Made by a program: the position numbers and the translations under genes. Shown here one piece after another: positions 31,404 through 52,810 of a DNA stretch of 64,000 bases. Below the pieces are notes generated by a model that worked only from the letters and a program-made list of their open reading frames with translations, was not told the DNA's origin and ran no database searches. Position 1 is the stretch's first letter. Every line of letters starts with the position of its first letter. This DNA comes from Smithella sp. (GTDB taxonomy: Bacteria; Desulfobacterota; Syntrophia; Syntrophales; Smithellaceae): positions 10,639 to 74,638 of the forward strand of contig DAOPVC010000002.1 in NCBI GenBank assembly GCA_035350895.1, given 5' to 3'.

Positions 31404-31485
31404 ACAGTGGTAGGCATTACCTACTATTCCCCTTACAATTAATCAGTATTGTTTTCATTCCTCCCTTTTATTAATTTGTAGTCAA
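31404..31485 (+). promoter_or_regulatory. A-family cassette, strong copy A1
   Basis: GGTAGGCATTACCTAC (31409-31424), ATTAATCAGTATTGTTTTC (31438-31456), 17-nt spacer, TAATTT. Upstream of wrbA. Confidence 0.7.
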
Positions 31486-31574
31486 TAATTAAATCTATAA
31501 GGAAGAATGACATTAAAAATAATCACCGTATAATGAAAACAAATGATTATAAAAAAGAAAAGGAGAACAGGAAT

Positions 31575-32186
31575 ATGAAAGTTCTAATAGTTTATTACTC
31601 AATGTATGGTCATGTATACAAAATGGCTGAAGCTGTGGCGGAAGGTGTTAAAAAGGTTAAAGGCGCTGAAGTGAAAATATGCCGTGTGCCGGAGACTTTG
31701 TCCGATGACATTTTGAAGAAAATGGGAGCTTTGGATTTTCAGAAAAAGACCGCTCATATCAATATTTGTACCACGGATGATCTGGTTTCCGCTGATGCAA
31801 TTATCTTCGGGACACCGACACGTTTCGGTAATATGTGCGGTCAGATGCGGCAATTTCTCGATTCTACCGGATCGATTTGGGCCAAAGGACTCCTTGTCGG
31901 CAAAGTAGGAAGTGTTTTTACCAGTTCGGCAACACAACACGGCGGACAAGAATCAACTATCCTCAGCTTCCATAATACACTGCTCCATCATGGAATGATC
32001 ATCGTAGGCCTGCCTTATGCTTTTGAAGGACAAATGCGTATTGATGAAATTACCGGTTCATCTCCTTACGGCGCTTCGACCATTGTTGGCGGTAAGGGTG
32101 AAAGAATGCCTAGCGAAAATGAACTGGAGGCTGCAAGATATCAAGGCAAGCATGTTGCTCAAATTGCAGAAAAACTGGCTCATTAA
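31575..32186 (+). CDS. wrbA: NAD(P)H:quinone oxidoreductase, flavodoxin-like
   Basis: [14 protein letters not shown]..., [17 protein letters not shown]. Confidence 0.9.
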
Positions 32187-32208
32187 TATCATTTCAAGGA
32201 GGTCTTTT

Positions 32209-32382
32209 ATGAAACAGAACACGAAGGATCAGGAGTGGCAGCAGATGCAGTATCGTATAAATAAATTTGTAGGCCATTTTCTGAAAAATGATATCCCTGC
32301 TATTGAACACAAAACACTCATAGCCGGTCTTTTGCAATCACCCCCGGAATACAATGAGCAAAATATAGAAGAAACTGTGTGA
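32209..32382 (+). CDS. small hypothetical protein (57 aa)
   Basis: AGGAGG RBS at 32197-32202 with 6-nt spacing. Sits immediately downstream of wrbA. No recognisable motif. Confidence 0.45.
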   Translation: MKQNTKDQEWQQMQYRINKFVGHFLKNDIPAIEHKTLIAGLLQSPPEYNEQNIEETV

Positions 32383-32466
32383 ATAATATTTGCAGAATAT
32401 TATCGGCCTAAATGGCAGGGGACAAAATTACATAAATTTAAATAATTGCACTTAAGTCAAGAAAGG

Positions 32467-33015
32467 ATGGCGGACAAAATGATTGGAGAAAAAATAAGAA
32501 ACGCGATGAATGAACAAATCAAACATGAAATGGAATCTTTTTATGTCTATTTATCAATGGCTGCATACTTTCATGCGCAGAATCTGGACGGCATGGCGCA
32601 CTGGATGCGTTGCCAGGCGCATGAGGAAATGATCCACGCCATGAAGTTCTACGATCACATCCTTGACCGGGGCGGTATCGTGACACTTTTGGATTTGAAG
32701 CAAATCAAAACCATATGGAAAAAACCGCTGGAACCCTGGCTGGATGCCTATGAACATGAAAAGTTCATTACAGGTAAGATTAAGGATATAACGAAAATAT
32801 CCCGTGAAGAAAACGACTACACATCCGAACCCCTTCTTTCCTGGTTTTTAAAGGAACAGATCGAAGAAGAAAAAAGCACGGAAAAAGTATCCCGCGAACT
32901 GGCCATGGTAGAAAACTCCAAAGAAGGTATTTTGATGTTGGACAGGGAATTGGCCACACGTGTTTTTACGGCCGGATCACCGCTGGATCCGGCAGCCTAC
33001 AATTTGGCGACATAA
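32467..33015 (+). CDS. ferritin (non-haem, Ftn-like)
   Basis: Di-iron ligand pattern NEQIKHEMESFYVY...AHEEMIHAM...EQIEEE. The start could be 32479. Confidence 0.85.
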   Translation: MADKMIGEKIRNAMNEQIKHEMESFYVYLSMAAYFHAQNLDGMAHWMRCQAHEEMIHAMKFYDHILDRGGIVTLLDLKQIKTIWKKPLEPWLDAYEHEKFITGKIKDITKISREENDYTSEPLLSWFLKEQIEEEKSTEKVSRELAMVENSKEGILMLDRELATRVFTAGSPLDPAAYNLAT

Positions 33016-33131
33016 AAAAGCAGTATGAATCATACGACAATCTCCGTCATCAACCCCAGCGGGAGAAATAAGAAAGCGATATGTCACCATAATAAAATCA
33101 AAATAACTCAGGCCGATGGAGAGACATTACG

Positions 33132-33782
33132 ATGGAAAAGAAATCAATATTATTTCCGGGTCTTTTATTCGTTGTCATCGTCACCGCACTAACGCTGGGA
33201 CTTTATGGCTTTGCTGTTGCTCACTGCGATACGCTGGATGGACCTGTCATTCAGGATGCCCGGAAGGCGCTGGATACCCAAGATGTCACACCTGTTCTCA
33301 AGTGGGTAAAGCAGAAGGATGAAAAGGCAGTGCGCGCAACTTTTGTAAGGGCGCTGAGAGCCAAAGGGAAAAAAGACGCTGCCTCATCAGAGAATCAGTT
33401 TTTTTCGACTCTCGTCAAGATTCATCGCGCCGGCGAAGGCGCACATTTTGCCGGACTTAAACCGGCAGGTGAAGTTGAGCCCGTCATTACAGAAGCGGAT
33501 AAAGCCCTGACGCGGGGTTCCTCGGATTCGCTGGTAAAAATGGTTACCAGCGATGTTGCTGCCGGCATTCAGAAGCGTTTCGAACGTGCATCCGCTACCT
33601 ACAAACACAAGGATGAGAGTGTTGAGCAGGGTCGTGAGTTTGTTGAGGCGTATGTAGAATATACACACTACGTGGAAAGACTGCATCTCGACGCAACCGG
33701 TAAAGGATTGCATGATGAACACCAAAAAGAATCCAAACATCCAGCTGCGAAGCATGGTGCGACAACAGAGCACGGACATTAA
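33132..33782 (+). CDS. secreted hypothetical protein (resembles DUF6448-type proteins)
   Basis: Signal/TM segment, then AHCDTLDGPV, and a His-rich C-terminus. Confidence 0.6.
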   Translation: MEKKSILFPGLLFVVIVTALTLGLYGFAVAHCDTLDGPVIQDARKALDTQDVTPVLKWVKQKDEKAVRATFVRALRAKGKKDAASSENQFFSTLVKIHRAGEGAHFAGLKPAGEVEPVITEADKALTRGSSDSLVKMVTSDVAAGIQKRFERASATYKHKDESVEQGREFVEAYVEYTHYVERLHLDATGKGLHDEHQKESKHPAAKHGATTEHGH

Positions 33783-33810
33783 CATTGCGCAGAACAAAAG
33801 GAGAAAGAAC

Positions 33811-34146
33811 ATGACAGAGAACTCTAAACCGACAGGACATATAGCCGATATATTGAATATTAAAAACCTGGCTGACTATCAGGATCACTCCATCGTCAGC
33901 CGGGAGATCATACAAAAACCATCGGGGACAATAACCGTTTTCGCTTTCGATAAGGGAGAGGGGCTCAGCGAACACGTGGCGCCTTTTGCCGCTGCCGTTT
34001 ATGTGCTGGAAGGCGAGGCGGAAATTCACATTGAAGGGAAGCCGTATTCAGTCAAAGAAGGAGAAATGATTATTATGCCGGCCGACAAGCCCCACGCGCT
34101 CAAAGCTATAAATCGCTTTAAAATGTTGCTGGTGATGATCAAATAA
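33811..34146 (+). CDS. cupin domain protein
   Basis: GGAG RBS at 33800. Cupin motifs FDKGEGLSEH and GEMIIMPADKPHAL. Confidence 0.8.
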   Translation: MTENSKPTGHIADILNIKNLADYQDHSIVSREIIQKPSGTITVFAFDKGEGLSEHVAPFAAAVYVLEGEAEIHIEGKPYSVKEGEMIIMPADKPHALKAINRFKMLLVMIK

Positions 34147-34168
34147 TCGAAAGCATGAGAGGTGACCT

Positions 34169-34678
34169 ATGAAGAAAAAAGATTATCTGCGATTAATTTT
34201 GATTCTAGCCATTTTTTCCCTGGCATTAGGTGGCTGTCTGCTTCATTTGAGAATCCATCCGGTTGCCCAAGACGCGGAGCATTGGATACCGGCCGTCGCC
34301 GGATTCATCAGCGTGGTTATCATTCCTGGTCTCTTTATTTTCCGGTCAACAATCCCTTTTGCCTATCTTCTTAACGGCATGACGGTAATCATCGGCACCA
34401 TTGCCATGACTCGTTTTTCCATTGAAAATCCACCGCAGGTGTGGACGCTGGAGACTTTCTTATTTGGAACGCTGTTTGCCGACATCATGATTCTTTGGGG
34501 AAAATTTGCATTAGGCAAAGCTCTTTATGAAATGGATTCAGTGGTGAGTCAGCCGGATGGGTTAAGACGTACAGGAAGATTTTTCCGTTTTCCGAACATG
34601 GGATTTTGGTTTGTGCATGTGGTGATGTTAACCGCCGTTTATATGATCGGTATTTACTTCTGGAAATCACAGGGATAA
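34169..34678 (+). CDS. hypothetical integral membrane protein (about 5 TM)
   Basis: 169 aa, hydrophobic throughout. GAGAGG RBS. Confidence 0.6.
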   Translation: MKKKDYLRLILILAIFSLALGGCLLHLRIHPVAQDAEHWIPAVAGFISVVIIPGLFIFRSTIPFAYLLNGMTVIIGTIAMTRFSIENPPQVWTLETFLFGTLFADIMILWGKFALGKALYEMDSVVSQPDGLRRTGRFFRFPNMGFWFVHVVMLTAVYMIGIYFWKSQG

Positions 34679-34680
34679 AC

Positions 34681-34886
34681 TCCTCAGCAAGCTGAGAAGT
34701 ATATCCCTTCCGCTGAGCGGGATTGTTCTAGTGTCCCGCTGAGCTTCGCTCGCGGGATAATTCGACCTACAAGTTTCAGTGCACTTTCCCGCTTTGCGGG
34801 ATAGTTCGACTGACGCTTCACTATAGTTCAGCGAGTCTCACTATGCTTCTGAAACCTGGGTCTCATTAAAATTTGAGTTTCACAAT
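34681..34886 (+). repeat. B-family modular repeat copy (three hairpin+GATARTTCGAC units, tail GGGTCTCATTAAAATTTGAGTTTCACAAT)
   Basis: Units end at 34730, 34770 and 34814. The tail is nearly identical to 43473-43503. Confidence 0.75.
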
Positions 34887-34900
34887 AAGAGGAGGATATC

Positions 34901-34990
34901 ATGATGAAGTATTTTTTATTATTCAAGCCGGGTTGGTGGCTATTACATGTTCTGGCGATTTTACTTCTGCTTTTGATGGGTCATCTATAA
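34901..34990 (+). CDS. candidate 29-aa hydrophobic peptide MMKYFLLFKPGWWLLHVLAILLLLLMGHL
   Basis: GAGGAGG RBS at 34889-34895, 5 nt before the ATG. Single predicted TM. Below the ORF-track length cutoff. Confidence 0.4.
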   Translation: MMKYFLLFKPGWWLLHVLAILLLLLMGHL

Positions 34991-35063
34991 CACCCTTGAA
35001 TTGAACAGGACGGTAAAATAGTTTTTGAAATAAAAGAAAATATTTTCATCAGGGTATATGATC

Positions 35064-35600
35064 ATGAGCATCGTTTATACCATTGGTCACTCCAATCGGC
35101 CCATTGAAAAATTTATTCAAATCCTTCAATTCTATAAAATTGAAACCGTTGCCGACGTACGAAGCATTGCAGCGTCCGGACATAACCCGCAGTATAATGA
35201 AGATGATCTGCGCAATAGTTTAAGCCGGGAAGATATTGGCTATATCCATTTGAAGGGACTTGGCGGACTCCGGCATACCACCAAAGCCTCAATCAATACC
35301 GCCTGGGAAAATGCCTCCTTTCGCGGCTATGCCGATTACATGCAGACAACCCAATTTAAGGAGAATCTTGACCAGCTCATCCACATGCTCAAGGATAAAC
35401 CAACAGTGATCATGTGCGCTGAAGTCCTTCCATGGCGCTGTCACAGGTCTCTGATCGGCGATGCCCTCCTGATCCTGAACATTACAGTCATAGACATCAT
35501 AAATGAAAAAAACAGCAAACATCATCTTCTGACGTCGTTTGCCAAAGTTGAAGGGCAAAGAATTATTTACCCCAAAGACAGCTTAACAGGAGGCCTGTAG
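35064..35600 (+). CDS. DUF488 domain protein
   Basis: VYTIGHSNRPIEKF...VADVR...WRCHR pattern typical of DUF488. Confidence 0.8.
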   Translation: MSIVYTIGHSNRPIEKFIQILQFYKIETVADVRSIAASGHNPQYNEDDLRNSLSREDIGYIHLKGLGGLRHTTKASINTAWENASFRGYADYMQTTQFKENLDQLIHMLKDKPTVIMCAEVLPWRCHRSLIGDALLILNITVIDIINEKNSKHHLLTSFAKVEGQRIIYPKDSLTGGL

Positions 35601-36401: not shown

Positions 36402-36410
36402 GGAGAAAGC

Positions 36411-37610: not shown

Positions 37611-37835
37611 CGGGCGCTGCAGCAAAATATCGTGGACAATAAGACATTGATGACCGCTTACAAACACAGCATGAAAAAGAGAAATGATTTATTGCATTGT
37701 TACGAAGAGCTCGTTAAAAAGGAATAAGATTGTGATACGGCGCAGGCGCTGAATGTCATCTTTAGCAAAAAGCTTGCATAACCTGTTTTGTCGACACCAC
37801 CGAGACGCACCTCCCAACGAATTTTCAGAAGAAAT

Positions 37836-37910
37836 AGTAGTAGCATATGCCTACCATTATTCACTTGTTTAACTATCATTGCTTTTCGTTATAAGTGCAT
37901 TAATAATATT
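37836..37910 (+). promoter_or_regulatory. A-family cassette, degenerate copy
   Basis: GTAGCATATGCCTACCATT...CATTGCTTTTC...GTGCATTAATAAT in the same order and spacing as the strong copies. Upstream of the gene at 38053. Confidence 0.45.
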
Positions 37911-38052
37911 ACAAACTTATAATAAACGAAAATGTTACGGAGTGGGTTCGAGAAAACTGGCTATGCAATTTGATTTTTTATCTTCTTCATAAGAATGCCA
38001 GTGTAACCTGATTAAAAATTAACATGACTAACTTCAAGGAAGGAGTAAAAAG

Positions 38053-38469
38053 ATGATTAAGCTAAAAGATTGTGACAGTAAACGGTTGTTGTTAATAGTT
38101 TTAATAACATTAGGACTTTTTACGCTGGCCTCCTGTGCGACAACTTCATGTCAAAAATATTCTACGGGCGGCGGCGGTATTGCCATAAAAGGCAGCGTCG
38201 TTAAGGTAGCCGATAGAGGTGTTTATTTATGCGTGGGCAGTCTGGATGGTGCCTCGATTGGTCAGGAACTGGAAGTCTGGAGGACAATCTATGGAGTAGG
38301 ATCTAAAGCAAATACAAGCATTACGAGTGGATCTATTTCCAGTGGAGAGATTAGTGAAAATATGGTCGGGAAAGTCAAAATTACAAAAATTCTAGATGAA
38401 CATTATTCTTTTGCTGAGGTTATATCAGGCGAGGCAAGACTTCACGATATTGTCGAAGCAAAATATTAA
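38053..38469 (+). CDS. hypothetical lipoprotein
   Basis: AAGGAGT RBS, lipobox LASC. 138 aa. Confidence 0.65.
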   Translation: MIKLKDCDSKRLLLIVLITLGLFTLASCATTSCQKYSTGGGGIAIKGSVVKVADRGVYLCVGSLDGASIGQELEVWRTIYGVGSKANTSITSGSISSGEISENMVGKVKITKILDEHYSFAEVISGEARLHDIVEAKY

Positions 38470-38544: not shown

Positions 38545-38669
38545 TGTCTGGATAATCCCCCAACACCTTTGGATATCTTTAAAAAGCGTTATGCCAAAAA
38601 GAAATCACAAAGCAAGAATATGAAAGAATGAAACACGATATTAAACTGGTAGGTTTATCCTACCGCTAA
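38545..38669 (+). pseudogene. frameshifted remnant of a SHOCT-domain C-terminus
   Basis: Frame 1 reads PLDIFKKRYAK. After the A-run at 38596-38600 the motif continues in another frame as EITKQEYERMKHDIKL. No credible N-terminal part. Confidence 0.35.
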
Positions 38670-38710
38670 CCTACAGATCAACCCTCATTGTTAATTTAAT
38701 TTAAAGATAT
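38648..38710 (+). promoter_or_regulatory. A-family cassette, degenerate copy with intact palindrome GGTAGGTTTATCCTACC
   Basis: Palindrome at 38648-38664, followed by ACCTACAGATCAACCCTCATTGTTAATTT. Upstream of the uspA-like gene. Confidence 0.5.
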
Positions 38711-38740
38711 ATTCTAAAACAAAAAAAGGAGGACATCATT

Positions 38741-39745: not shown

Positions 39746-41968
39746 ATGACAAATCCTCCGCCCAAGAAAAATAATAATATTCTCTTCGCGGCATTAATCA
39801 TATTTTTCTCATTGTCCGCATTAATTATTATCCTAGGTTATTTTATTTATCAAAACCAAAAAAAAGACATTGCTAATGCCGCCAGTCAACAGCTTACAGC
39901 GATTGCTGAACTTAAAGTATGGGAAATCAATAATTGGCGTAGTGAGCGCATCGGTGACGCAGGCGTAATCTATAAAAATAATGAATTTGCGTCCGATGTA
40001 ATGCAATATTTCAACAATCCTTCATCGCTGGAAGCAAGAAAAAATATTTTGTCGTTACTTTCTGCAACACAAAAATCATATCAATATAAAAACATATTAC
40101 TACTCGATACAAATAAAAAAGTTCAATTGGCCTTAAAGGACTATAACAGCGGTTTTGGCAAGGGTCATTTCGATGATATCGATGAAGCAGTCAAAAAAAA
40201 CGACATCATCATTAGTGATTTATACGGAAATAATAAAACAGGGGCTATTCATCTGTCTGTGGTTATTCCCATTATGATCATGCAAAAGGCTAATACGAAA
40301 CATGTTGGTTCGGTCATGATTATTATCGATCCCCATGTGCGCTTATATCCGGCGATAAAATTATGGCCTGTGCCCAGTGAGACGGGTGAGGCACTGCTTG
40401 TACATCGTGAAGGTAACGACGTCGTTTATCTTAACGAATTGCGTCACATCAAGAACATGCCTTTAATGATGAAATATCCCTTAACGGCATCATCATTACC
40501 TGCCGTTAAGGCGGTGCTTGGCTGGAAAGGTGTCGTTTACGGGACAGATTATCGTAAAAAAAGTGTTCTGGCGGCAATCAAGGCCGTGCCGGATACTGCA
40601 TGGTTTCTTGTCGCTAAGGTTGATACGGAGGAAATACACGCACCCTTAAGAGCGCGTTTTTGGACGACTGTTTTTTTCATCATAGTCAATATATTGGTTC
40701 TTGGAATTATTGTCGCTTATATCTGGCGTTATCAGCAGGCAAAATATTATCGTAAACAATATGAGCTGGAAGATAAAAGGGCTTTTCTATATGCCCGAAG
40801 TTTGATTGAAGCGAGTATCGATCCTCTGGTGACCATCAGCAATGAAGGAAAAATTATGGATGTCAACGAATCGACGGAATCGATCACAGGTCGATCCAGA
40901 AAAGAATTGATCGGCAGTAATTTTTCCAATTATTTTACCGAACCGGAAAAAGCCGAGGAGGGATATAAACTGGTATTTGAAAATGGCATTGTCCGGGATT
41001 ATCCCCTGTCTATAAGAAATGTTTCCGGTAAGATTACTGAAGTATTATACAATGCCACCGTATATAAAAACGAAGCCGGAGAGGTGCAGGGTGTTTTTGC
41101 AGCGGCCCGTGATATAACGGTATTAAGACGTATAGAAAAAGAGTTGAAGACTGCGCATGACGAATTAGAAATCAGAGTAAAGGAAAGAACAAAAGAATTA
41201 CAAATAGCGAATGAGGCTCTGCACTGCGAAATAACAGAACGTAAAGAAGTCGAAAGACTTATTGAACTGCGGACAAAATTGCTGGAAGTGACGAATAAAG
41301 AATTGGAAAGTTTCAGCTACTCCGTTTCTCACGATTTGCGTGCTCCGCTGCGCGCCATTGACGGATATACGAGGATGATTCTAAGGGATCAAAGAGACAA
41401 GCTCGATGATGATGCCAAACGTAAATTCGATTTGATTAGAATCAATACTCAAATGATGGGCAAGCTGATTGACGATTTGCTTTCCTTTTCTCGTTTAGGA
41501 CGTTTGGAACTTAATATGACAAAGCTTGATATTGAAAGTTTAGTCAATGATATATGGATGGAGTTGCAGATTATTAATCCCGGTAGAAAGATTGACTTGA
41601 AAATTGAAAATATTCCGCCGGGATGGGGTGACCGCACATTAATCAAGCAAGTGTATTCTAATCTTTTAGCGAATGCTGTAAAATATACAAAATTGATAGA
41701 TAAAGCGTATGTGGAAACCGGTGGATACACGGAAGGGAATGAAAATATCTACTATGTTAAGGATAATGGAGTTGGCTTTGATATGGAGTATTATGATAAG
41801 TTGTTCGGCGTATTTCAACGTTTGCACAGCTCTGATGATTATGAAGGAACCGGTGTAGGTTTGGCTATCGTTCAGCGAATAATTCACCGCCACGGAGGCC
41901 GTGTCTGGGCTAATGGAAAGGTAGATAAAGGCGCCACTTTTTATTTTACATTGCTTCAAAAGGATTGA
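39746..41968 (+). CDS. sensor histidine kinase (TM, ~270-aa extracytoplasmic domain, TM, PAS, HisKA, HATPase)
   Basis: H-box FSYSVSHDLRAPLRAIDGY, N-box LLANAVKYT, G-boxes DNGVGFD and GTGVGLAIV. Confidence 0.92.
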   Translation: MTNPPPKKNNNILFAALIIFFSLSALIIILGYFIYQNQKKDIANAASQQLTAIAELKVWEINNWRSERIGDAGVIYKNNEFASDVMQYFNNPSSLEARKNILSLLSATQKSYQYKNILLLDTNKKVQLALKDYNSGFGKGHFDDIDEAVKKNDIIISDLYGNNKTGAIHLSVVIPIMIMQKANTKHVGSVMIIIDPHVRLYPAIKLWPVPSETGEALLVHREGNDVVYLNELRHIKNMPLMMKYPLTASSLPAVKAVLGWKGVVYGTDYRKKSVLAAIKAVPDTAWFLVAKVDTEEIHAPLRARFWTTVFFIIVNILVLGIIVAYIWRYQQAKYYRKQYELEDKRAFLYARSLIEASIDPLVTISNEGKIMDVNESTESITGRSRKELIGSNFSNYFTEPEKAEEGYKLVFENGIVRDYPLSIRNVSGKITEVLYNATVYKNEAGEVQGVFAAARDITVLRRIEKELKTAHDELEIRVKERTKELQIANEALHCEITERKEVERLIELRTKLLEVTNKELESFSYSVSHDLRAPLRAIDGYTRMILRDQRDKLDDDAKRKFDLIRINTQMMGKLIDDLLSFSRLGRLELNMTKLDIESLVNDIWMELQIINPGRKIDLKIENIPPGWGDRTLIKQVYSNLLANAVKYTKLIDKAYVETGGYTEGNENIYYVKDNGVGFDMEYYDKLFGVFQRLHSSDDYEGTGVGLAIVQRIIHRHGGRVWANGKVDKGATFYFTLLQKD

Positions 41969-41972: not shown

Positions 41973-42407
41973 ATGAATAATCCGGAGATAGTACTTGTTG
42001 AAGATAATCAGCATGATTTAGAGATGATTATAGATGCTCTTAATGAATTGAGAATCTACAAAAACGTATGTATTCTGCGAGATGGCGTCGAGGCGACAAA
42101 ATACTTTTTTAATTCCGCAGGCGGATTAAATTTTAATATCAGTGCTTTGCCAAAACTGATTCTGTTGGATCTAAAATTACCCAAGATCAATGGTCTGGAA
42201 GTATTAAAGGCGTTAAAAATGAATGAAGAAACCAGGTCTCTGCCGGTAGTTATTTTTACTTCATCGGATGAATCGAGTGATCGGATTAGCAGTTACAATC
42301 TTGGCGCTAACAGCTATCTGGTAAAGCCATTGGATGCTGATGAATATTTTTCCTACATAAGAGATATTATTAATTACTGGATCGGGATGAATGCCACAGC
42401 GCAGTGA
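41973..42407 (+). CDS. single-domain response regulator (receiver only)
   Basis: EDNQHD acidic pocket, phospho-acceptor LILLDLKLP, conserved Lys in YLVKP. Confidence 0.9.
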   Translation: MNNPEIVLVEDNQHDLEMIIDALNELRIYKNVCILRDGVEATKYFFNSAGGLNFNISALPKLILLDLKLPKINGLEVLKALKMNEETRSLPVVIFTSSDESSDRISSYNLGANSYLVKPLDADEYFSYIRDIINYWIGMNATAQ

Positions 42408-42433: not shown

Positions 42434-43291
42434 ATGAGTGACAAATTACATATTTTAATTCTGGAAGATATGGCCGCCGATGCTGAATTAATGGAAGATG
42501 AATTAAAGCAAGACGGATTTAAATTTGATGCCAAACGCGTTGCCGGCAGGTCTGCGTTTATCAAAGAACTGGAAGAATTTTCACCGGACTTGATTCTTGC
42601 CGATTATTCTCTTCCCGGCTTTGGTGGTCAAGCGGCTCTGAAAATCGTTATGGATAAATCCGTTGATATACCCTTTATCTTTGTTTCCGGAGCGTTGGGC
42701 GAGGAATTGGCTATAGAATTGCTGAAAAAAGGGGCAACAGATTATGTATTAAAAAATAAACTCTCCCGGCTTGTTCCTTCGGTTAAGCGCGCGCTTAACG
42801 AATTGGCCGAGCGTAATGAGCGTAAAAAAGCGGAAAATGAATTGCGGCTGAAATCAAAGAGTCTGGAAGAGGCTAATACCGCCTTGAAGGTTTTATTACA
42901 GCACAGGGACGAAGACAGGACGGCGTTGGAAGAAAAGGTTATTACTAATGTTAAAAAACTTGCGCTACCCTATATAGAAAAACTAAAGACGCTTCAATTA
43001 AACGAGAGCCAGATGTCTTGTGTAAAGATTATGGAAGATCATCTTAAAGACATCATCTCGCCTTTTCTGCGCAATCTAACGATAGAACATCTGGATTTCA
43101 CGCCGCGAGAGATTCAAATTACATCATTGGTAAAAGAAGGCAAAACGACGAAAGAGATTACCGAATTATTAAATATATCGGCAACGGCTGTGGATTTTCA
43201 CAGAAAAAATATCCGGCTGAAACTCGGCATCAAAAATAAAAAGACCAATCTTCGCTCGTTTCTTCTTTCCATGCCGTCAAAAATTGATTAA
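42434..43291 (+). CDS. response regulator with receiver, coiled-coil linker and LuxR/GerE-type HTH
   Basis: ILILEDM..., LILADYSLPG, C-terminal LTPREIQITSLVKEGKTTKEITELLNISATAVDFHRKNIRLKLG. The track start at 42404 is possible. Confidence 0.88.
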   Translation: MSDKLHILILEDMAADAELMEDELKQDGFKFDAKRVAGRSAFIKELEEFSPDLILADYSLPGFGGQAALKIVMDKSVDIPFIFVSGALGEELAIELLKKGATDYVLKNKLSRLVPSVKRALNELAERNERKKAENELRLKSKSLEEANTALKVLLQHRDEDRTALEEKVITNVKKLALPYIEKLKTLQLNESQMSCVKIMEDHLKDIISPFLRNLTIEHLDFTPREIQITSLVKEGKTTKEITELLNISATAVDFHRKNIRLKLGIKNKKTNLRSFLLSMPSKID

Positions 43292-43503
43292 TCACGGTTA
43301 TGAACCCAGGGCAATCCCGATTGCTATCGGGACTGGACCCTGATTCCGCCCCTTGGGGCGGAATATCATATCCATGCTTATACAGGATAATTCGATCTGC
43401 AATATAGTCCCACATGGCTTCGCATGTGGGATAATTCGACTAACCAATCTGACTGCGCTTCGTTTGTCATATTGGAGTCTCATTAAAATTTGAGTCTCAC
43501 AAT
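43290..43503 (+). repeat. B-family modular repeat copy (head AATCACGGTTATGAAC overlapping the TAA stop, several hairpins, two GATAATTCGA units, tail GGAGTCTCATTAAAATTTGAGTCTCACAAT)
   Basis: Perfect 8-bp hairpin CCCACATG/CATGTGGG at 43409-43430. Units end at 43400 and 43444. Confidence 0.75.
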
Positions 43504-43557
43504 CATGTCGTAAAAAGCACTATATAGTGATCCCTTCTACGAACGGATGTGATTCCT

Positions 43558-43625
43558 CCATTGGTAGTATTCACCTGCCAATCTGCATTGAGTTAACCAC
43601 CATTGTTTCTGAAATTGAAATCTAT
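43558..43625 (+). promoter_or_regulatory. A-family cassette, degenerate copy
   Basis: 32 of 53 ungapped matches to the strong copies (CCATTGGTAG...CCT.C...TTAA.CA..ATTGTTT). Upstream of the gene at 43693. Confidence 0.4.
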
Positions 43626-43692
43626 AAAATAAACATTAGAAAATACATTGCCATCACACAGACACACTAATTACAAGGGGGGGGAGTAAGTT

Positions 43693-44061: not shown

Positions 44062-44169
44062 TCAGACTTTCACTCTTTAGATCAGACGTTAGGCATTGTC
44101 GTCAATTTTCCTATGTATGACGCGTGATTTTTTTATCGACAAACATCAAAGCAATGAGGATAAACGTGA

Positions 44170-45314: not shown

Positions 45315-45478
45315 ATGTCGCTGCGCTCCTAGTGTCGTGTTTCAATGAAACCGTGTCATATCGACCAACGGGAGATATCTTGTATATTCTTATTACACAA
45401 GGTATAATTCGTCCAGCAAGCTTCGGCACACTTCGTTTCTGAAGTTTGGGACTCATTATCAGCTTGGCTCACTATCTT
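45315..45478 (+). repeat. B-family modular repeat copy (degenerate)
   Basis: CTCCTAGTGTCG, GTATAATTCGTCCAGC, GCTTCGGCACACTTCG, tail GGGACTCATTATCAGCTTGGCTCACTATC. Confidence 0.55.
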
Positions 45479-45483
45479 TTAAA

Positions 45484-45565
45484 GCAATGGTAGGCATTGC
45501 CTACTATTCCCCTTACAATTAATCAGTATTGTTTTCCCGCACCCCTTGCATTAATTTGCAGTTAA
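45484..45565 (+). promoter_or_regulatory. A-family cassette, strong copy A2
   Basis: 45489-45536 differs from 31409-31456 at 1 of 48 positions. TTGTTT-N17-TAATTT. Upstream of the ytxH-like gene. Confidence 0.7.
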
Positions 45566-48198: not shown

Positions 48199-48295
48199 GG
48201 TATAAGATATATGTCGTTTCCCTACTACTATACTCCTTTAAAACTATTATTGTATTTAATAAAAAATCATCTTAATTTGTATTCAGGTCATATAA
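48199..48295 (+). promoter_or_regulatory. A-family cassette, degenerate copy
   Basis: CCTACTACTATACTCCTTTAAAACTATTATTGTATTT, then TTAATTTGTA 22 nt after TTGT exactly as in copy A1. Upstream of the gene at 48335. Confidence 0.45.
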
Positions 48296-48334
48296 AAAAT
48301 CACGATCCTTAATTACAAATAAAGGAGTAGAATT

Positions 48335-49057
48335 ATGTGCAAGGTGATTAAGGTTGTGCCCGAGAACCACGACATCAATTCGTTGTATCTCGAAGTGACC
48401 GATGAGAAGTTCAATTGCAGAAAGGCGGGCCAATTCGCATCCCTCATGATTATGAGACCGGACGGATGGAGCGAACCGCATTCATTTTCCATCTCCGGCG
48501 CTCCCGAAGAATCCAATTTACGTCTGACAATTAAGAAAGTGGGCAAGTTCACCTCCGCTATCCCTGATTTGAAACAGGGAACTTCGCTGATATGTAAAGG
48601 TCCTTTCGGCGCCTTTTGTAAGGATATTGACATCGAGCCTTCCATTGTATTGCTGGCCGGCGGCGTAGGCGTTGCGCCTTTTTTAAGCGTGCTCCGGCAT
48701 TTTAGAAATATTAAGGCAGGCAATAAAGTTGTTCTTTTCTGGATAAACAGGGTCATAGAGGATGTCTTCTCCTCAGACGAGATTGACGCAATGACCAATG
48801 AATTATCCCTTAAAGTTGTTTACTGCCTGAGCCGTGAAGATGATGTGCAAAGATACTTCCGGAGCAATTACCCGGAAGTATCTTACGAAAAGAGCCGCTT
48901 AAGCGGTGATATTCTGGTAAAGTTCGGAATAACCAAGAACGCCTCCTTTTATCTCTGCGGCCCGGTTCCCATGATGGAGTCTGTGCTTGTGGAGTTTGGC
49001 AAACTTGATGTGGATCGATCGGCCGTGCAACAGGAAAGGTTCACCTGGGATAAGTAA
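48335..49057 (+). CDS. ferredoxin-NADP reductase-like FAD/NAD(P)-binding oxidoreductase
   Basis: FAD motif EPHSFSIS, GKFTS, NAD motif LLAGGVGVAPF, C-terminal YLCGP. Confidence 0.8.
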   Translation: MCKVIKVVPENHDINSLYLEVTDEKFNCRKAGQFASLMIMRPDGWSEPHSFSISGAPEESNLRLTIKKVGKFTSAIPDLKQGTSLICKGPFGAFCKDIDIEPSIVLLAGGVGVAPFLSVLRHFRNIKAGNKVVLFWINRVIEDVFSSDEIDAMTNELSLKVVYCLSREDDVQRYFRSNYPEVSYEKSRLSGDILVKFGITKNASFYLCGPVPMMESVLVEFGKLDVDRSAVQQERFTWDK

Positions 49058-49213
49058 ATAAAATCAAATTTCTCCTGAGTTGATTCTATGCGGCGATTCC
49101 CTCTATAGAGGTGTCCAGGTCTTGGGAATTCCGGGGACCCATAATAATTTTCAAAAATCTCCTCTCACCCCTCTTTACAAAAGAAGGGAATAGGCGTCAT
49201 CAACTGATAGCAT

Positions 49214-49282
49214 CTACCTACCATTATACTTACTATTTTCCAATATTGCTTTTGATGATGGATTCATCCATTTTGTCTCACA
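49214..49282 (+). promoter_or_regulatory. A-family cassette, degenerate copy
   Basis: CCTACCATT-ATA-CTTACTATT-TTC-CAATATTGCTTTT aligns with copy A4 in blocks. Confidence 0.5.
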
Positions 49283-49321
49283 AAAATATCAAATCACAAG
49301 GCGTTATCAAAGGAGGTCGTT

Positions 49322-49498
49322 ATGGAATATGAAGATGGTGATATAATAAAACCGCTGGACAGGCTTTTTGAAGATCATCGCAAGGAATTTGAAAGTGGAA
49401 GTGATAGGGAATCCGACAAGGAGTTGAAAAAAAAGATTCTGGAACTGGGCGGTTTTGAAATGGGGTGTCGAACCGGAAGCCGAAGAAACCCGGAATAA
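49322..49498 (+). CDS. candidate small acidic protein (58 aa)
   Basis: AAGGAGG RBS at 49311-49317, 4 nt before the ATG. Below the ORF-track cutoff. No motif. Confidence 0.4.
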   Translation: MEYEDGDIIKPLDRLFEDHRKEFESGSDRESDKELKKKILELGGFEMGCRTGSRRNPE

Positions 49499-49553
49499 GA
49501 AACCGATCGAAGAAAATCTCAGGAAAGAAAATATTTTAGCGGAGGCAGCTGGC

Positions 49554-50060
49554 GTGAATGATGAAAAAGGCATTGTAATTGAGAAGGTCTTTGACGCATC
49601 GCGCGATGCCGTATGGAGGGCATGGACAGAGCCGAAGTTCATTTCGAAGTGGTGGGGTCCCGAAGGATTCAGCGCACCAAGCATTAAAGTGGATTTAAAA
49701 GTGGGCGGTAAATATATATTTGCCATGCATGGGCCGAAAGGCTCTCAGTGGGATAAAGACATGTACAGTGCAGGAATCTATAAAGAAATCGTGCCAAATA
49801 AGAAACTGGTCGTAACAGATTACTTTTCCAATGAGAAGGGAGAAATGATGGAACCTGCCGATTTTGGGCAGGATCCTAACTTCCCGAAAGAATCGACAGT
49901 CATAGTGCTTTTTGAAGAAACGGAGCGAGGCAAAACAAAACTTTCGATCATCTATCCAAAACCGGAAACAAATGAGCAGATGGACGCTATGCTTAAGAGC
50001 GGCATGAAAGAAGGCTGGAATTCCAGCCTCGAAAAGTTGAAAAGGGCTTTGAAGGCGTAA
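49554..50060 (+). CDS. SRPBCC/AHSA1 (activator of Hsp90 ATPase homologue 1-like) domain protein
   Basis: IVIEKVFDASRDAVWRAWTEPKFISKWWGPEGF. GTG at 49554 has a GGAGG RBS 8 nt upstream. The track ORF opens at TTG 49455. Confidence 0.75.
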   Translation: MNDEKGIVIEKVFDASRDAVWRAWTEPKFISKWWGPEGFSAPSIKVDLKVGGKYIFAMHGPKGSQWDKDMYSAGIYKEIVPNKKLVVTDYFSNEKGEMMEPADFGQDPNFPKESTVIVLFEETERGKTKLSIIYPKPETNEQMDAMLKSGMKEGWNSSLEKLKRALKA

Positions 50061-50091
50061 TCACGGGTATGAACCGAGGAGGATTTCAACT

Positions 50092-50574
50092 ATGTTTAAA
50101 TTTAAAAATTTTCCCGATGTTCTTGAGGTGGCAGTGCGCATTGAACGGCATGGCGCTGATTTTTACAACAAATTATCTTCCAGACTGGAAACACCACCGG
50201 CAAAGGACGTATTTTCCTTCCTGGCAGCTCAAGAAGAAAAACATGCAGGTGTTCTCAGGCAGATACTGGAGAAAGTTGCAGATTATGCCCCTCGTTTTAA
50301 TTATCCCGGAGAATACGGATTATTTATTGAAGGGGTTGCCTCCAGCCTCTTAGATAAAATAGAAAAAGCAATGGTTTCATTACCCACGGGAAATGAGAAT
50401 GAAATATTGGATATCGGCATTGAATTTGAAAAAGAAACAATTCTCTTTTATCAGGAGATAAAATCTGAAAGTAAGTTAAGCCAGAAAGAGGATAAGGTGC
50501 TGCAAAAAGTTATTGACGGGGAAAGATCGCATTGGCAGAAACTTATTTCTCTGAAAAACAAGTTAAAGTTTTAA
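50092..50574 (+). CDS. ferritin-like di-iron protein (rubrerythrin-type four-helix bundle without a rubredoxin domain)
   Basis: VAVRIERHGADFY, AAQEEKHAG, IGIEFEKETILFY and DGERSHW ExxH-type pairs. Confidence 0.75.
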   Translation: MFKFKNFPDVLEVAVRIERHGADFYNKLSSRLETPPAKDVFSFLAAQEEKHAGVLRQILEKVADYAPRFNYPGEYGLFIEGVASSLLDKIEKAMVSLPTGNENEILDIGIEFEKETILFYQEIKSESKLSQKEDKVLQKVIDGERSHWQKLISLKNKLKF

Positions 50575-50735
50575 CCTTAAATAGACAAAGACGATTGCCT
50601 TGCCTGAAAAAAAGTGCGACAGCGGAGTGGTGTGTGCTAAAGTTCTCACGCGAACCGAACCGCCATGAAATATTCAGATTTTTTTCGCTGTTAACTGTGT
50701 ATTTGAAAGATGGTGCAAAATTTTTATCTTTTCGA

Positions 50736-50815
50736 GCAATGGTAGTCATTACCTACCATTTCCCTTACTATTAATCAGTATTGTTTTCCTTTATCCCTTG
50801 CATTAATTTTTGGTC
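50736..50815 (+). promoter_or_regulatory. A-family cassette, strong copy A3
   Basis: GGTAGTCATTACCTACC (50741-50757), ATTAATCAGTATTGTTTTC, 17-nt spacer, TAATTT. Confidence 0.7.
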
Positions 50816-50869
50816 AAAAGACGCGATCATTAATTTGTTTAAAACCATTATGATTGAAGGAGTTTGCCT

Positions 50870-52216
50870 GTGTTGAATTTTACATTAACGCCGGAACAAC
50901 TTTCATTGCAGGAAAGAGCTCGCGAATTCGCCTTGAAAGAGATACTCCCGCTGGCATGGTTTTATGATGAAGCCAATGAAATCCCGATGCATATCATCAA
51001 TAAGGCTGCCGGGCTTGGATTTATGACTGGCGACATGCCGGAAAAGTACGGCGGCCTGGGTTATGGTTCTGTAGAAGGCGCTATCGTTACTGAAGAGATC
51101 GCTGCAGCGTGCTCCGGCCTGGCTACCTCTGTGTTTATCAATTCCCTTGGTTATGCGCCGCTTGTCCTTAGCGATAATGAGGCTCTCAAGCAAAAGTATT
51201 TACCAAAAGTTTCCAAAGAAAATAAACGCATATGCTTTGCCACGTCTGAACCCACTATGGGCTCTGATGTTGCCGGTATTATGTGCCATGCCAAAGAAGA
51301 CGGGGATTCATATATACTCAACGGCATCAAATACTGGATAACAAACGGCGGCATAGCTGATTACATGACGGTCTTTGCGACAGTCGATCAGAAACTGCAA
51401 CACCAGGGTATATGCGCGTTCCTCATTGAAAGAGACTGGAAAGGCGTTTCAACCGGTCGACATATTCCGAAAATGGGCCAGCGGGCATCCAATACGGCAG
51501 GGCTCCACTTTAAGGATGTGCGTGTGCCGAAGGAAAATGTAATCGCCAAACCGGGAGAAGGATTTGTGTTGGCCATGAAGGCTTTTGCCTGGTCAAGACC
51601 GATGATCGGCGCTTTTGCGGTTGGTGTTGCGCGATCGTCAATGGACTATGCCATACACTATGCGAAATCGCGGCGTGCCTTTGGCCACCATCTCCAGTTC
51701 TATGAAGCGATCCAGTTTAAAATTGCTGAGATGTATCAGAAAGTGGAAACATCACGCCTGCTGGTAATGAAAGCCGCGTGGGAAACTGATAATGGAATTG
51801 ACCCTACCTTGAACGCATCGATCAGCAAATTTTACTGCACCGAAGCGGCCAACGAAGTTGTCAGCTCCGCCCTGCAGATAGCCGGGGGATATGGTTACAC
51901 AACGATGTATCCTTTTGAAAAGCTTTTACGGGATGTCCGGCTTCTGATGATTTATGAAGGCACGAGCGAGATACAGCGTATGATTGTTTCCGGCTACGCT
52001 CTTGGCGCTTATCAACCCATTATGCCGCCCATTGAAGATCTTCCCATGCTTAAGAGCGAAACGGGCGGGAAGGATTTTGAAAAGGAGATGTCCGGCAAAA
52101 CGGCCTGGCGCTGCAAGATGTGCGGACATATTCATTATGGTAATGAGCCACCGGAAGAGTGCCCGTATTGCTTCTTCCCCGGCAACGCATTTAAAAAAGT
52201 CTGGCCGCGTGAATAA
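50870..52216 (+). CDS. acyl-CoA dehydrogenase fused to a C-terminal rubrerythrin-type rubredoxin module
   Basis: ACAD motifs (CFATSEPTMGSDVAG, YWITNGG, GGYGYT, IYEGTSEIQR), then AWRCKMCGHIHYGNEPPEECPYC. GTG at 50870 is 7 nt after the GAAGGAG RBS. Confidence 0.85.
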   Translation: MLNFTLTPEQLSLQERAREFALKEILPLAWFYDEANEIPMHIINKAAGLGFMTGDMPEKYGGLGYGSVEGAIVTEEIAAACSGLATSVFINSLGYAPLVLSDNEALKQKYLPKVSKENKRICFATSEPTMGSDVAGIMCHAKEDGDSYILNGIKYWITNGGIADYMTVFATVDQKLQHQGICAFLIERDWKGVSTGRHIPKMGQRASNTAGLHFKDVRVPKENVIAKPGEGFVLAMKAFAWSRPMIGAFAVGVARSSMDYAIHYAKSRRAFGHHLQFYEAIQFKIAEMYQKVETSRLLVMKAAWETDNGIDPTLNASISKFYCTEAANEVVSSALQIAGGYGYTTMYPFEKLLRDVRLLMIYEGTSEIQRMIVSGYALGAYQPIMPPIEDLPMLKSETGGKDFEKEMSGKTAWRCKMCGHIHYGNEPPEECPYCFFPGNAFKKVWPRE

Positions 52217-52239
52217 GACGTGCATAAAGTTTGGCAACA

Positions 52240-52370
52240 GTCCCCTTAGCTTCGAACTTTGTCCCGACTTGTCGGGACTCGTTCTACGCAAGGCATAGTT
52301 CGACTAACGTTTCGAACGGCACTTCGTGTGTGCTCTCAACGAGTTTCACTCTCAGCGAGTGTCATTAAAA
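52240..52370 (+). repeat. B-family modular repeat copy
   Basis: Hairpin GTCCCGACTTGTCGGGAC (52261-52278), unit CATAGTTCGACTAAC, tail GAGTTTCACTCTCAGCGAGTGTCATTAAAA. Confidence 0.65.
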
Positions 52371-52381
52371 GGAGATTTAAA

Positions 52382-52561
52382 ATGAAACAAAAAAATTCTT
52401 CAGTAGGTAAAGGCGGGAAAACTGATAAGGGGAAGTCCGGCAAAACGGCTTGGCGCTGTGATAAGTGCGGAGAGATTCATTATGCTGATGCACCGCCGGA
52501 CGAGTGCCCGTATTGTCTTTTTCCTAATCAGCCATTTAAGAAAGTCGAACCGGAAGAGTAA
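52382..52561 (+). CDS. stand-alone rubredoxin-like protein (59 aa), paralogue of the ACAD C-terminal module
   Basis: AAGGAG RBS at 52369-52374. AWRCDKCGEIHYADAPPDECPYC. 52436-52561 aligns without gaps to 52091-52216. Confidence 0.75.
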   Translation: MKQKNSSVGKGGKTDKGKSGKTAWRCDKCGEIHYADAPPDECPYCLFPNQPFKKVEPEE

Positions 52562-52584
52562 TAAATCAACATTGCTTTATACGT

Positions 52585-52730
52585 GAAAGCGGGCTGATGC
52601 ATTCGACAGCTAAAAAAATCACGGGTATGAACTCCAAAACATATTTGGGGTTATCATATAGTCCCGCGTGCAGGCTTCAGTGCACTCCCGCCGCTCTATA
52701 ATCCGGGTCTCTGATCCCACTCCGATTAGA
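52585..52730 (+). repeat. B-family modular repeat copy (contains head AATCACGGGTATGAAC at 52617-52632)
   Basis: GCGGGCTGATGCATTCGACAGC unit, head motif, hairpin CCAAAACATATTTGGGG, tail CGGGTCTCTGATCCCAC. Directly abuts cassette A4. Confidence 0.6.
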
Positions 52731-52810
52731 GCAATGGTAGGCTATACCTACCATTCCCCTTACTATTAATCAGTATTGTTTTACCTCATCTCTTCCATTA
52801 ATTTGCAGTT
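52731..52810 (+). promoter_or_regulatory. A-family cassette, strong copy A4
   Basis: GGTAGGCTATACCTACC (52736-52752), ATTAATCAGTATTGTTTTA, 17-nt spacer, TAATTT. Confidence 0.7.

Follow-up and report, generated by a model that had tools for sequence, protein, structure and literature searches.

The window analysed here is a stretch of 64,000 nt from a contig of Smithella sp. (DAOPVC010000002.1, positions 10,639 to 74,638), a genus of the Thermodesulfobacteriota (Syntrophia, Syntrophales); its WrbA is 95-96% identical to the WrbA proteins of Smithella sp. SCADC and D17. The region from 31.4 to 52.8 kb carries genes of redox and stress proteins together with a two-component system, and a short cassette of 70-110 nt recurs there in the intergenic regions, every copy being oriented toward the next gene. 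This cassette, the genes that follow it and a LuxR-type regulator encoded among them (42434-43291) are the subject of this study.

Four copies of the cassette are closely related and belong to a subtype that we call type I. Copy 1 (31408..31477, + strand, 60.5 bits) stands before wrbA and a 57-aa open reading frame (ORF). It comprises a putative operator array (31408-31455), a -35-like hexamer TTGTTT (31449-31454) and a -10-like hexamer TAATTT (31472-31477), is preceded by a conserved extension at about 31380-31407 and is followed by the wrbA ATG at 31575. Copy 2 (45488..45557, +, 61.4 bits; -35 at 45529-45534, -10 at 45552-45557) precedes the genes of YtxH, a VOC protein and a thiamine diphosphate (ThDP) enzyme. 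Copy 3 (50740..50809, +, 61.6 bits; -35 at 50781-50786, -10 at 50804-50809) precedes those of an acyl-CoA dehydrogenase (ACAD)-rubredoxin fusion and a rubredoxin-like protein, and copy 4 (52735..52804, +, 59.3 bits; -35 at 52776-52781, -10 at 52799-52804) those of a rubredoxin-superoxide reductase (Rd-SOR) and a 158-aa protein. Four near-identical + strand copies had been reported in the initial annotation of this DNA, and both direct reading and a repeat search, which joins them in one 98-nt family of 76-84% identity, confirm them. Direct reading likewise reproduces its two finer statements: 31409-31456 agrees with 45489-45536 at all but 1 of 48 positions, and exactly 17 nt separate TTGTTT from TAATTT in all four copies. 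The cassette length of about 80 nt proposed there needs extension; the module is real, but its Smithella version runs some 30 nt further upstream as CATTTGTAAGTtTTTTATCTTTTAAAGCAA.

Four further copies are divergent. The first (37838..37907, +, 48.0 bits; TTGCTT, 17 nt, AATAAT) lies before a lipoprotein gene (38053-38469), and its variant is conserved before the orthologous gene in another locus (L002). The second (38647..38716, +, 42.4 bits; TTGTTA, 16 nt, TATTCT) opens the operon usp-tauE-kinase-RR-RR (RR, response regulator), and the same variant precedes usp in L034, L037 and L070. The third (43562..43631, +, 44.7 bits; TTGTTT, 16 nt, TAAAAT) begins 270 nt past the stop codon of the regulator gene and precedes the gene of an exported 122-aa protein; orthologous copies were found in L038, L066 and L070. 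The fourth (49205..49274, +, 45.7 bits; TTGCTT, 17 nt, CATTTT) stands before a 58-aa ORF and genes of SRPBCC and rubrerythrin-like proteins, its variant being present also in L023 and L029. A fifth site (48209..48278, +, 8.9 bits), before the gene of an FNR-like reductase, is marginal and eroded: it keeps the right arm of the palindrome, the CCTAC-N23-ATTG register and TTGTAT-17-TAATTT, the left arm is lost, and nhmmer does not report it. Among the six degenerate copies suggested earlier, these four are therefore solid, that at 48199-48295 is marginal, and that at 44089-44125, detected by neither profile nor matrix, is not a copy.

The scores come from a weight matrix trained only on copies from outside the window and applied to both of its strands. 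The eight + strand copies reach 42-62 bits, while 30 shuffles peak at 7.3, so that the copies are recovered by a matrix to which they contributed nothing. The ninth-ranked site on either strand is the one at 48209, just over the shuffle peak. The pattern TRRTAG-N6-CCTACYATT-N19-ATTGYTTT has six matches in the window, all on the + strand, and none in 100 shuffles. An nhmmer profile also reports eight significant copies, all on the + strand, with E values near 1e-16 for those at 31404, 45484, 50736 and 52731 and weaker ones at 49203 (2e-8), 37835 (8e-8), 43559 (9e-5) and 38645 (2e-3). All copies are confined to 31.4-52.8 kb; the remaining 42 kb of the window contain none. The claim that nearly every transcription unit of the region has a cassette was overstated: according to our reading of the ORF map, units with a cassette are 8-9 of about 13 between 31.4 and 53.3 kb, and the ferritin, DUF6448-cupin, DUF488-etfBA and enoyl-CoA hydratase units of this range have none.

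Next, we examined how widely the cassette occurs. An exact pattern of about 42 bits was searched in 185,579 species genomes, one for each species, and gave 27 loci in 22 genomes, whereas about 0.3 would be expected by chance in 1.2e12 positions (an estimate under uniform base composition). All 27 loci are labelled Smithella, Syntrophaceae, Syntrophus, Syntrophales or delta-proteobacterial metagenome-assembled genome. The cassette is found also on many metagenome contigs, in orthologous positions and with the same stress genes. The 22-kb island of the initial annotation is not private to this DNA; in Syntrophales the regulon cluster is lineage-wide.

Several subtypes of the cassette can be told apart, with a common core and differences elsewhere. 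Type I, of Smithella, stands before wrbA, Rd-SOR, ACAD-rubredoxin, osmC and small rubredoxin-like genes and before a 58-aa ORF followed by ferritin. Type II precedes operons of a REC-PAS-PAS-HisKA_3 kinase (REC, receiver domain) and a NarL-type regulator, type III precedes usp and a starch-synthase-like gene, and type IV precedes cydA. One type II subgroup, before REC-PAS-HisKA_3 kinase genes (L016, L017, L025, L030, L032, L086), has a conserved 110-nt leader of the form ..TCAATGATGTCA..AAGT.TAAGTAATTAAA..GACGTCCGAC... The window variants before usp, the lipoprotein gene, the 58-aa ORF and the exported 122-aa protein gene recur before orthologues in other genomes, across species and genera.

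Genes directly 3' of unique cassettes were counted as targets. WrbA-type quinone reductases (14) and REC-PAS kinases (11) are the most numerous, followed by ACAD-rubredoxin or rubredoxin-like proteins (7), universal stress proteins (USPs; 7), starch-synthase-like proteins (4), the exported 122-aa protein (4), Rd-SOR (3), YtxH (3), two kinds of 58-aa ORF (3 each), a 121-aa zinc-ribbon protein (3) and CydA (2). OsmC, a cytochrome c, a dienelactone hydrolase, ferritin, an HtrA-like protease and a DnaJ-domain protein occur once. In another Smithella genome, cassettes stand before genes of an iron superoxide dismutase (Fe-SOD) and a rubrerythrin fragment and before an etfBA operon. Defence against oxygen and reactive oxygen species, iron storage, the dormancy-related USP and YtxH proteins, protein quality control and storage polymers are all represented, and judging from these gene identities the set looks like an oxygen or general-stress response. 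The oxygen, redox or dormancy stress regulon originally suggested for the window alone gains support from the same stress genes predicted behind cassettes in 22 Syntrophales genomes.

Several small genes and repeats of these units were noted in passing. The 57-aa ORF after wrbA (32209-32382) is conserved and has no Pfam family; in L014, L043 and L046 a type I or related cassette of its own precedes the homologue, and ferritin comes next. The 158-aa protein (53342-53818), also without Pfam family, is encoded directly 3' of Rd-SOR in six cassette-selected loci. A 139-nt direct repeat of 75% identity (52078-52216 and 52423-52561) reflects duplication of the C-terminal rubredoxin-like domain of the ACAD fusion, which forms the C-terminus of the next gene (100 aa).

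Placement of the cassette relative to genes was determined in 928 kb of fetched DNA, a site being defined by at least 14 bits. Intergenic regions hold 125 of the 131 sites (95%), although non-coding sequence makes up 17% of that DNA, and in 103 of 131 a same-strand ORF of at least 100 aa begins within 450 nt downstream. Start codons lie at a median of 105 nt past the end of ATTGYTTT. These numbers bear on the possibility that the cassette is a dispersed mobile or recombinogenic repeat, similar to miniature inverted-repeat transposable elements (MITEs) or repetitive extragenic palindromic (REP) sequences, Correia elements being an example, which carries a promoter about and owes its position to insertion bias, with no dedicated regulon. 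The initial annotation had named placement independent of gene starts as the mark of such a repeat, and in the DNA fetched the opposite was found. Several observations do speak for mobility: before unrelated genes, type I copies stay near-identical for about 110 nt, the cassette is a breakpoint of several short-read assemblies, L002 and L033 have the usp-type variant joined to a non-homologous gene, and cassettes of the window are flanked by gene remnants. The breaks, for instance those of several short-read wrbA contigs that begin at model position 25 or 29, are what is expected when an assembler meets a repeat. On the other side, reading of 26 type I copies with 30-nt flanks showed us neither terminal inverted repeats nor duplicated targets, the sole inverted repeat being internal, at the 5' side. 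All eight window copies lie on the + strand toward the following gene, gene-specific variants have been inherited in orthologous places by different species and genera, and the same exact pattern has no match in 2.9 million viral contigs.

A further argument comes from the way in which type I changes. Among its 26 unique copies, hardly any variation is seen between about -105 and -29 or in the CATTAATTT box, and the pyrimidine-rich spacer is the only fast-evolving stretch, drifting between paralogues as well as between orthologues. Gene conversion would homogenise the spacer too; drift of the spacer between fixed flanking blocks therefore indicates purifying selection on the blocks, that is, selection on function. 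We consider a mere mobile repeat very unlikely. Phage origin was dropped because of misfitting anatomy and the absence of viral-contig matches. An integron attC array would have imperfect palindromes with R''/L''-L'/R' boxes at the 3' ends of single promoterless ORFs, and an integrase; at the level of reading it was dropped because the units are multi-gene operons of 0.6-5 kb and the element is conserved in sequence and lies 5' of genes, and no integrase domain was present among the 30 island ORFs scanned.

A separate dispersed repeat of about 100-150 nt, which we call the B family, lies at 34719-34890, 43386-43505, 45318-45475, 52292-52331, 52658-52725 and 26725-26830. It starts with a single hairpin CCCGC..GCGGG or several of them, ATAATTCGAC standing behind each, and continues with ..GCACTTCGTTTCTGAAA.. 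and then GGGTCTCATTAAAATTTGAGTCTCACAAT. Often situated just upstream of the cassettes and present in other Smithella loci as well, it is probably a REP/MITE-like element, and we rejected the idea that it forms a part of the cassette. The copy at 45318-45470 seems to be inserted between the halves CATTTGTAAGTTTTTTATC and CTTTTAAAGCAATGG of an extended type I cassette, with TATC at both sides. Rearrangement scars occur at cassette borders in the window (37630-37760, 38562-38645), in L002 (17078-18485) and in L033 (5800-7239). In the latter two loci a usp-type cassette precedes the gene of a 288-301-aa periplasmic protein, then a SHOCT gene and a copper ATPase gene; of these, the window retains a 130-nt piece of the periplasmic gene, situated after etfA, and the final 85 nt of the SHOCT gene, which directly adjoin the usp cassette on its upstream side.

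The anatomy of the cassette was derived from 88 unique copies aligned without gaps, of which 87 are full-length; similar copies were down-weighted, giving an effective number of about 48. Numbered from the T of TGGTAG, the first half reads A-1 a0 T1 G2 G3 T4 A5 G6 n T8 w T T n C13 C14 T15 A16 C17 C18 A19 t20 T21 and the second half a n n C25 T26.. C29 A30 w T32 t A34 A35 T36 C37 C38 n Y40 A41 T42 T43 G44 T45 y T47 T48, with conservation of at least 95% at A5, G6, C14, T15, T21, C25 and A41 to G44. Three elements can be distinguished. An inverted repeat AaTGGTAG-N7-CTACCAtT, with 8-bp arms 7 nt apart, occupies positions -1 to 21 and contains the nearly fixed A5, G6, C14 and T15 (98-100%). From positions 17-21 of this repeat onward, (C)CATT recurs directly at an 11-nt period, in two further repeats at 28-32 and 39-43. 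The third of the series overlaps the invariant ATTG (96-100% conserved), whose TTG is in the -35 position.

Is the palindrome read as DNA or as RNA? A structured RNA leader, such as a riboswitch, thermosensor or attenuator that masks the Shine-Dalgarno sequence, would be in line with a hairpin of 7-9 bp into which the palindrome alone folds (z -1.4 to -2.2) and with the pyrimidine-rich spacer, which contains CCUCC in copy 1. The hairpin covariation test that the initial annotation proposed for separating the two models was run and favours a DNA operator, no compensatory changes being found. At pair 2/18 of the 87-copy alignment the counts are GC 52, GT 15, AC 15 and AT 4, the last against 4.1 expected under independence, and in an alignment of 30 sequences both sides change in 1 of 210 cells, with the observed covariation matched by 445 of 500 shuffles. 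The arms vary independently, which marks the palindrome as a probable protein-binding DNA site rather than an RNA hairpin; it is dyad-symmetric in conserved sequence and not merely in pairing potential. Other data agree. Rfam has no match in the window at gathering threshold and, up to E 5 across the island, two matches of chance level, one of them SNORD5 on the minus strand at 52765-52835 (26 bits against a gathering threshold of 55, E 2.5), overlapping copy 4. The pyrimidine stretch is the least conserved part, the stretches from -10 to the start codon are unstructured (z 0.2, 0.0 and +1.9), and no conserved promoter lies upstream of the cassette. An RNA leader is thus extremely unlikely.

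Behind the operator-like array, information in the weighted 87-copy alignment falls to about zero for some 17 nt after TTGTyT and reappears as T-A-a-n-t-t exactly 17 nt downstream. Types I, III and IV, like the divergent copies of the window, read TTG followed after 16-17 nt by TAnnnT. A conserved block, a variable spacer of fixed length and TAnnnT across aligned copies uphold the -35/-10 geometry first seen in four copies, and the arrangement is that of a sigma-70-type promoter: -35/-10-like hexamers 16-18 nt apart, with A at -11 and T at -7. Only the reading of TGCAT-TAATTT as an extended -10 has to be given up, the TG being 3 nt, not 1 nt, before the hexamer. The core is weak. TTGTTT and TAATTT match the consensus at 6 of 12 positions, the -35 at 3 of 6, and a simple consensus scan does not list the pair for this reason; weakness of this kind usually goes with dependence on an activator. 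The promoter can be read without any special sigma factor. In the ACAD cassette the CATTAATTT(G) box is doubled (50801-50813 and 50828-50840, 27 nt apart), and both boxes are conserved in L026.

Other promoter and site assignments were tried and rejected. A Bacteroidota-type promoter (TAATTTG resembling the -7 box TAnnTTTG) was dropped because all related genomes are Syntrophales. The pair TAGGCA-17-TACAAT, found inside type I by a consensus scan, is absent from types II-IV by reading, and TTG/TAnnnT was preferred. A sigma-54 promoter (TGGCAC-N5-TTGC) fails as the logo shows no conserved GG/GC pair 10 nt apart and copy 1 has neither; RpoH and ECF (extracytoplasmic function) promoters misfit in spacing on direct reading. 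An IHF site in AATCAGTATTG and the CRP/FNR-like palindromes ACAAT-N8-ATTGT and CAAT-N4-ATTG exist in some subtypes only.

Taken together, conservation, placement and anatomy make it very probable that the cassette is a cis-regulatory promoter module of a conserved stress regulon. The comparative evidence thus bears out what was at first predicted from one genome, a promoter-like cassette with an operator palindrome in front of putative stress genes.

If the cassette is a regulated promoter, which protein regulates it? The operon behind the cassette at 38647 encodes a sensor histidine kinase (39746..41968, +; PAS, HisKA and HATPase domains, a weak dCache match below the Pfam cut-off and an LvrA-like core), a receiver-only response regulator of 144 aa (41973..42407, +), which is a conserved partner upstream of the DNA-binding regulator, and the latter itself (42434..43291, +; 285 aa from the gene-caller start), the candidate cognate factor. 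The regulator joins an LvrB-like receiver through two helices to a GerE/LuxR helix-turn-helix (HTH). Pfam finds Response_reg and GerE, and the acidic pair, the DYSLP aspartate, the S/T and the K are conserved, so that a phospho-acceptor receiver and a C-terminal LuxR-type HTH are both in place; atypical is the helical linker of about 110 residues. In an AlphaFold2 (AF2) model (predicted local distance difference test score, pLDDT, 80) the receiver covers residues 1-106, a continuous helix 107-185 (79 residues), a second helix 191-218 and the HTH 224-279. Foldseek with this model returns LvrB first (29-31% identity), then StyR, LiaR, RcsB and FixJ, and phmmer matches the regulator to 8vc9 (LvrB) with E 2.5e-25. 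NCBIfam scores of kinase and regulator are far below family cut-offs, hence they are relatives of LvrA and LvrB and not orthologues.

Orthologues of the regulator with overall identities of 63-88% have an almost invariant HTH, NISATAVDFHRKN.., and its apparent constancy matches that of the motif core. Close homologues are labelled Smithella or Smithellaceae and bear generic database names ('NarL/FixJ family response regulator', 'PAS domain S-box protein'); paralogues of 411-416 aa, into which a PAS domain is inserted, are common.

We then looked at linkage between motif and regulator from both sides. Among 8-kb loci selected by the cassette, several (L011, L015, L021, L027, L028) hold regulator orthologues of 61-92% identity. 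Unbiased clustering of 226 ORFs from 28 such loci gave LvrB-type receiver proteins as the most recurrent group (12 of 28 loci), ahead of WrbA (11) and ferritin (8); no other regulator family is recurrent in this set, and no Fur- or LysR-family gene recurs. Conversely, 80 metagenome loci selected by the regulator contain 71 cassettes of at least 14 bits, distributed over 41 loci, with none in shuffles, and 66 of the 71 share the regulator's strand. The match extends to the HTH in 40 loci, and 20 of these have a cassette 0-160 nt past the end of the regulator match, which is about 10-45 nt before the stop codon in the ORFs read. Where only the receiver of a REC-PAS kinase is matched, seven loci have the cassette 67-114 nt upstream of the kinase gene, and on a distant 4.77-Mb contig a receiver-only gene and a REC-PAS-LuxR gene are followed by a cassette 103 nt later. 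Type II cassettes, finally, precede operons of a REC-PAS-HisKA_3 kinase and a NarL-type response regulator in other genera. The LuxR-type regulator pointed out in the initial annotation as one protein to be examined is thus physically linked to cassettes under both routes of locus selection, and it stands as a plausible candidate. The motif is also found upstream of the regulator's own operon (38647), and the two-component system appears to be autoregulated. In L080 (10001-10906) and L103 (10001-11067), REC-PAS-LuxR genes seem truncated or frameshifted, with cassettes still adjoining.

From these data we propose that each cassette would be a complete regulated promoter, an array of transcription-factor sites joined to a weak sigma-70-type core. 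With the transcription start set 7 nt after the -10 hexamer, the array would span about -76 to -33 and the inverted repeat would be centred near -67. An oxygen/redox or starvation-related signal might lead the LvrA-like kinase to phosphorylate the receiver-LuxR regulator, which its coiled coil would keep dimeric. A regulator dimer would bind the inverted repeat and then fill the two proximal half-sites down to -35, and once bound it would recruit or stabilise RNA polymerase at a promoter too weak alone. The regulator would also activate its own operon; in some genera, the system would induce a downstream pair of an LvrB-like kinase and a NarL-type regulator. The receiver-only protein could serve as phosphate sink or connector.

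The opposite sign of regulation deserves consideration as well: the regulator could be a repressor that occludes the -35 region, the regulon being de-repressed on signal. The proximal half-site does overlap the -35 TTG, a position compatible with occlusion. The core promoter matching 6 of 12 positions is, as said, a usual signature of activator dependence, and NarL/FixJ-type regulators with an upstream inverted repeat and proximal sites, such as BvgA and UhpA, are activators. We therefore hold repression to be improbable.

A more serious competitor accepts the promoter module and assigns it to a different factor, either another transcription factor encoded elsewhere or an alternative sigma factor reading ATTGTnTT / TAnnnT, so that the two-component genes would be members of the regulon and not its master. 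It draws strength from the nature of the tie between regulator and motif, which is one of co-localisation, from conservation of ATTG (96-100%) above that of a usual housekeeping -35, and from a type I block longer than one dimer site. Against it, no second regulator family recurs in cassette-selected loci, the -10 is conserved across subtypes just as TAnnnT, like a housekeeping element and not a specialised box, sigma-54 (GG-N10-GC) and RpoH spacings misfit on direct reading, and the motif precedes three different operon types encoding this LvrB-type receiver family. A different factor seems to us rather unlikely, and the balance leans moderately toward the product of 42434-43291 as the cognate factor.

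Several findings weigh against the activator model and limit the confidence it deserves. About half of the regulator-selected loci have no cassette, including L045 with 10 kb at each side, which also favours another factor. Loci with and without a recognition-helix variant differ in cassette presence in the expected sense (12/23 versus 0/3), but with p = 0.22 and three contrasting loci only. Linkage makes the two-component genes a part of the cluster and probably members of the regulon, which falls short of a demonstration that their product binds the motif. The near-identity of type I over at least 49 nt exceeds what a single dimer site needs, and a second, Smithella-specific factor may act there. 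The six type II loci with the conserved leader described above show no recognisable -10 at 16-18 nt after TTGTTT. Finally, a near-consensus sigma-70 promoter ATGACA-16-TATAAT (11/12) lies at 31507-31534, between cassette and wrbA start codon, and its ATGACA part is conserved in other Smithella species; wrbA may have this second, cassette-independent promoter, in which case the cassette promoter is not necessarily the sole start.

With these points included, the whole account, a regulated promoter cassette activated by the product of 42434-43291 and controlling an oxygen or general-stress regulon of syntrophs, still appears reasonably probable. Far more tentatively, the system could be the master general-stress and oxygen response of Syntrophales, with the 110-nt type I module copied before at least eight unrelated units as a 'portable promoter'. 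If so, a receiver/coiled-coil/LuxR regulator would fill the role held elsewhere by sigma-S, sigma-B or EcfG, and the portable promoter would recruit genes into the regulon when cassette borders are duplicated or recombine.

Smithella and related syntrophs, strict anaerobes that have hardly or not at all been brought into culture, take part in the degradation of propionate and alkanes in methanogenic digesters, peat and oil reservoirs. A limited literature search on oxidative-stress regulation in Smithella and Syntrophus returned nothing on the motif or the regulator. The present analysis supplies a motif that can be scanned in any Syntrophales genome, a gene set (WrbA, SOR, rubredoxin fusions, cytochrome bd, OsmC, ferritin, USP, YtxH and a glycogen-type synthase) and a named candidate regulator, which together with its kinase is a target for biochemistry. 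Interpretation of metatranscriptomes at the level of this regulon becomes possible. The LvrB-type receiver-plus-helix module, known as a kinase controller, is here joined directly to a DNA-binding domain.

Outside the region discussed, in-frame tandem repeats (39 nt x4 and 54 nt x2) of lysine-, alanine- and glutamate-rich codons at 4749-5078 probably belong to a repetitive coiled-coil protein.

Comparison with known systems places the cassette in familiar company. In kind the system would be an ordinary two-component regulon; its motif, lineage and regulator architecture are new as far as the limited literature search goes, in which no described regulon matched it. PerR and OxyR regulons of anaerobes have overlapping targets (rubrerythrin-like proteins, SOR, rubredoxins, ferritin/Dps), whereas the motif, on direct reading, is neither a Fur-family 7-1-7 box nor an OxyR tetranucleotide array. 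Promoters of the BvgA, UhpA and NarL type possess a high-affinity upstream inverted repeat and weaker half-sites down to -35, which the phosphorylated regulator fills cooperatively. This is the closest promoter architecture; half-site sequences are unrelated, and in our case the conservation of the proximal sites suggests their occupancy.

For the proteins themselves, the nearest relative in sequence and structure is the Lvr system of pathogenic Leptospira, consisting of the hybrid kinase LvrA and the receiver-controlled kinase LvrB (PMC5863495, PMC13269768). The receiver with a long following helix is shared and the kinase core is LvrA-like, and in other genera cassettes precede genes of true LvrB-like REC-PAS kinases. 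LvrB has a kinase domain at its end and lacks a DNA-binding domain, whereas the Smithella regulator couples this input module to a LuxR HTH. In layout the closest counterpart is the lxa locus of Burkholderia cenocepacia, in which about 50 genes are activated at low oxygen and a motif is found at 17 intergenic points (PMC3721108). It includes USPs, two-component genes and storage-polymer and electron-transfer functions, and further loci with the motif exist elsewhere in that genome (PMC3721108). Both systems thus have one locus with a common motif at intergenic points. The lxa motif, TGA-N6-TCA, is of Anr/FNR type and points to a CRP-family regulator; here we find TGGTAG-N7-CTACCA with direct repeats and linkage to a LuxR-type regulator.

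The closest system in logic is DosR/DevR of Mycobacterium tuberculosis, a NarL/FixJ-family regulator with the kinases DosS and DosT that has palindromic boxes before many units, its own operon included. The regulon of DosR includes USPs (PMC2914252). The DosR box, a 20-bp palindrome GGGACT..AGTCCC, is unrelated to the Smithella motif, the linker of DosR is short where the Smithella regulator has a coiled-coil or helical module of about 110 residues, and phylum and gene set differ, SOR, rubredoxin fusions, WrbA and cytochrome bd being typical here. What both have in common is a two-component regulator with a LuxR-type HTH and a USP-rich survival regulon of redox or hypoxia type, in our case a predicted one.

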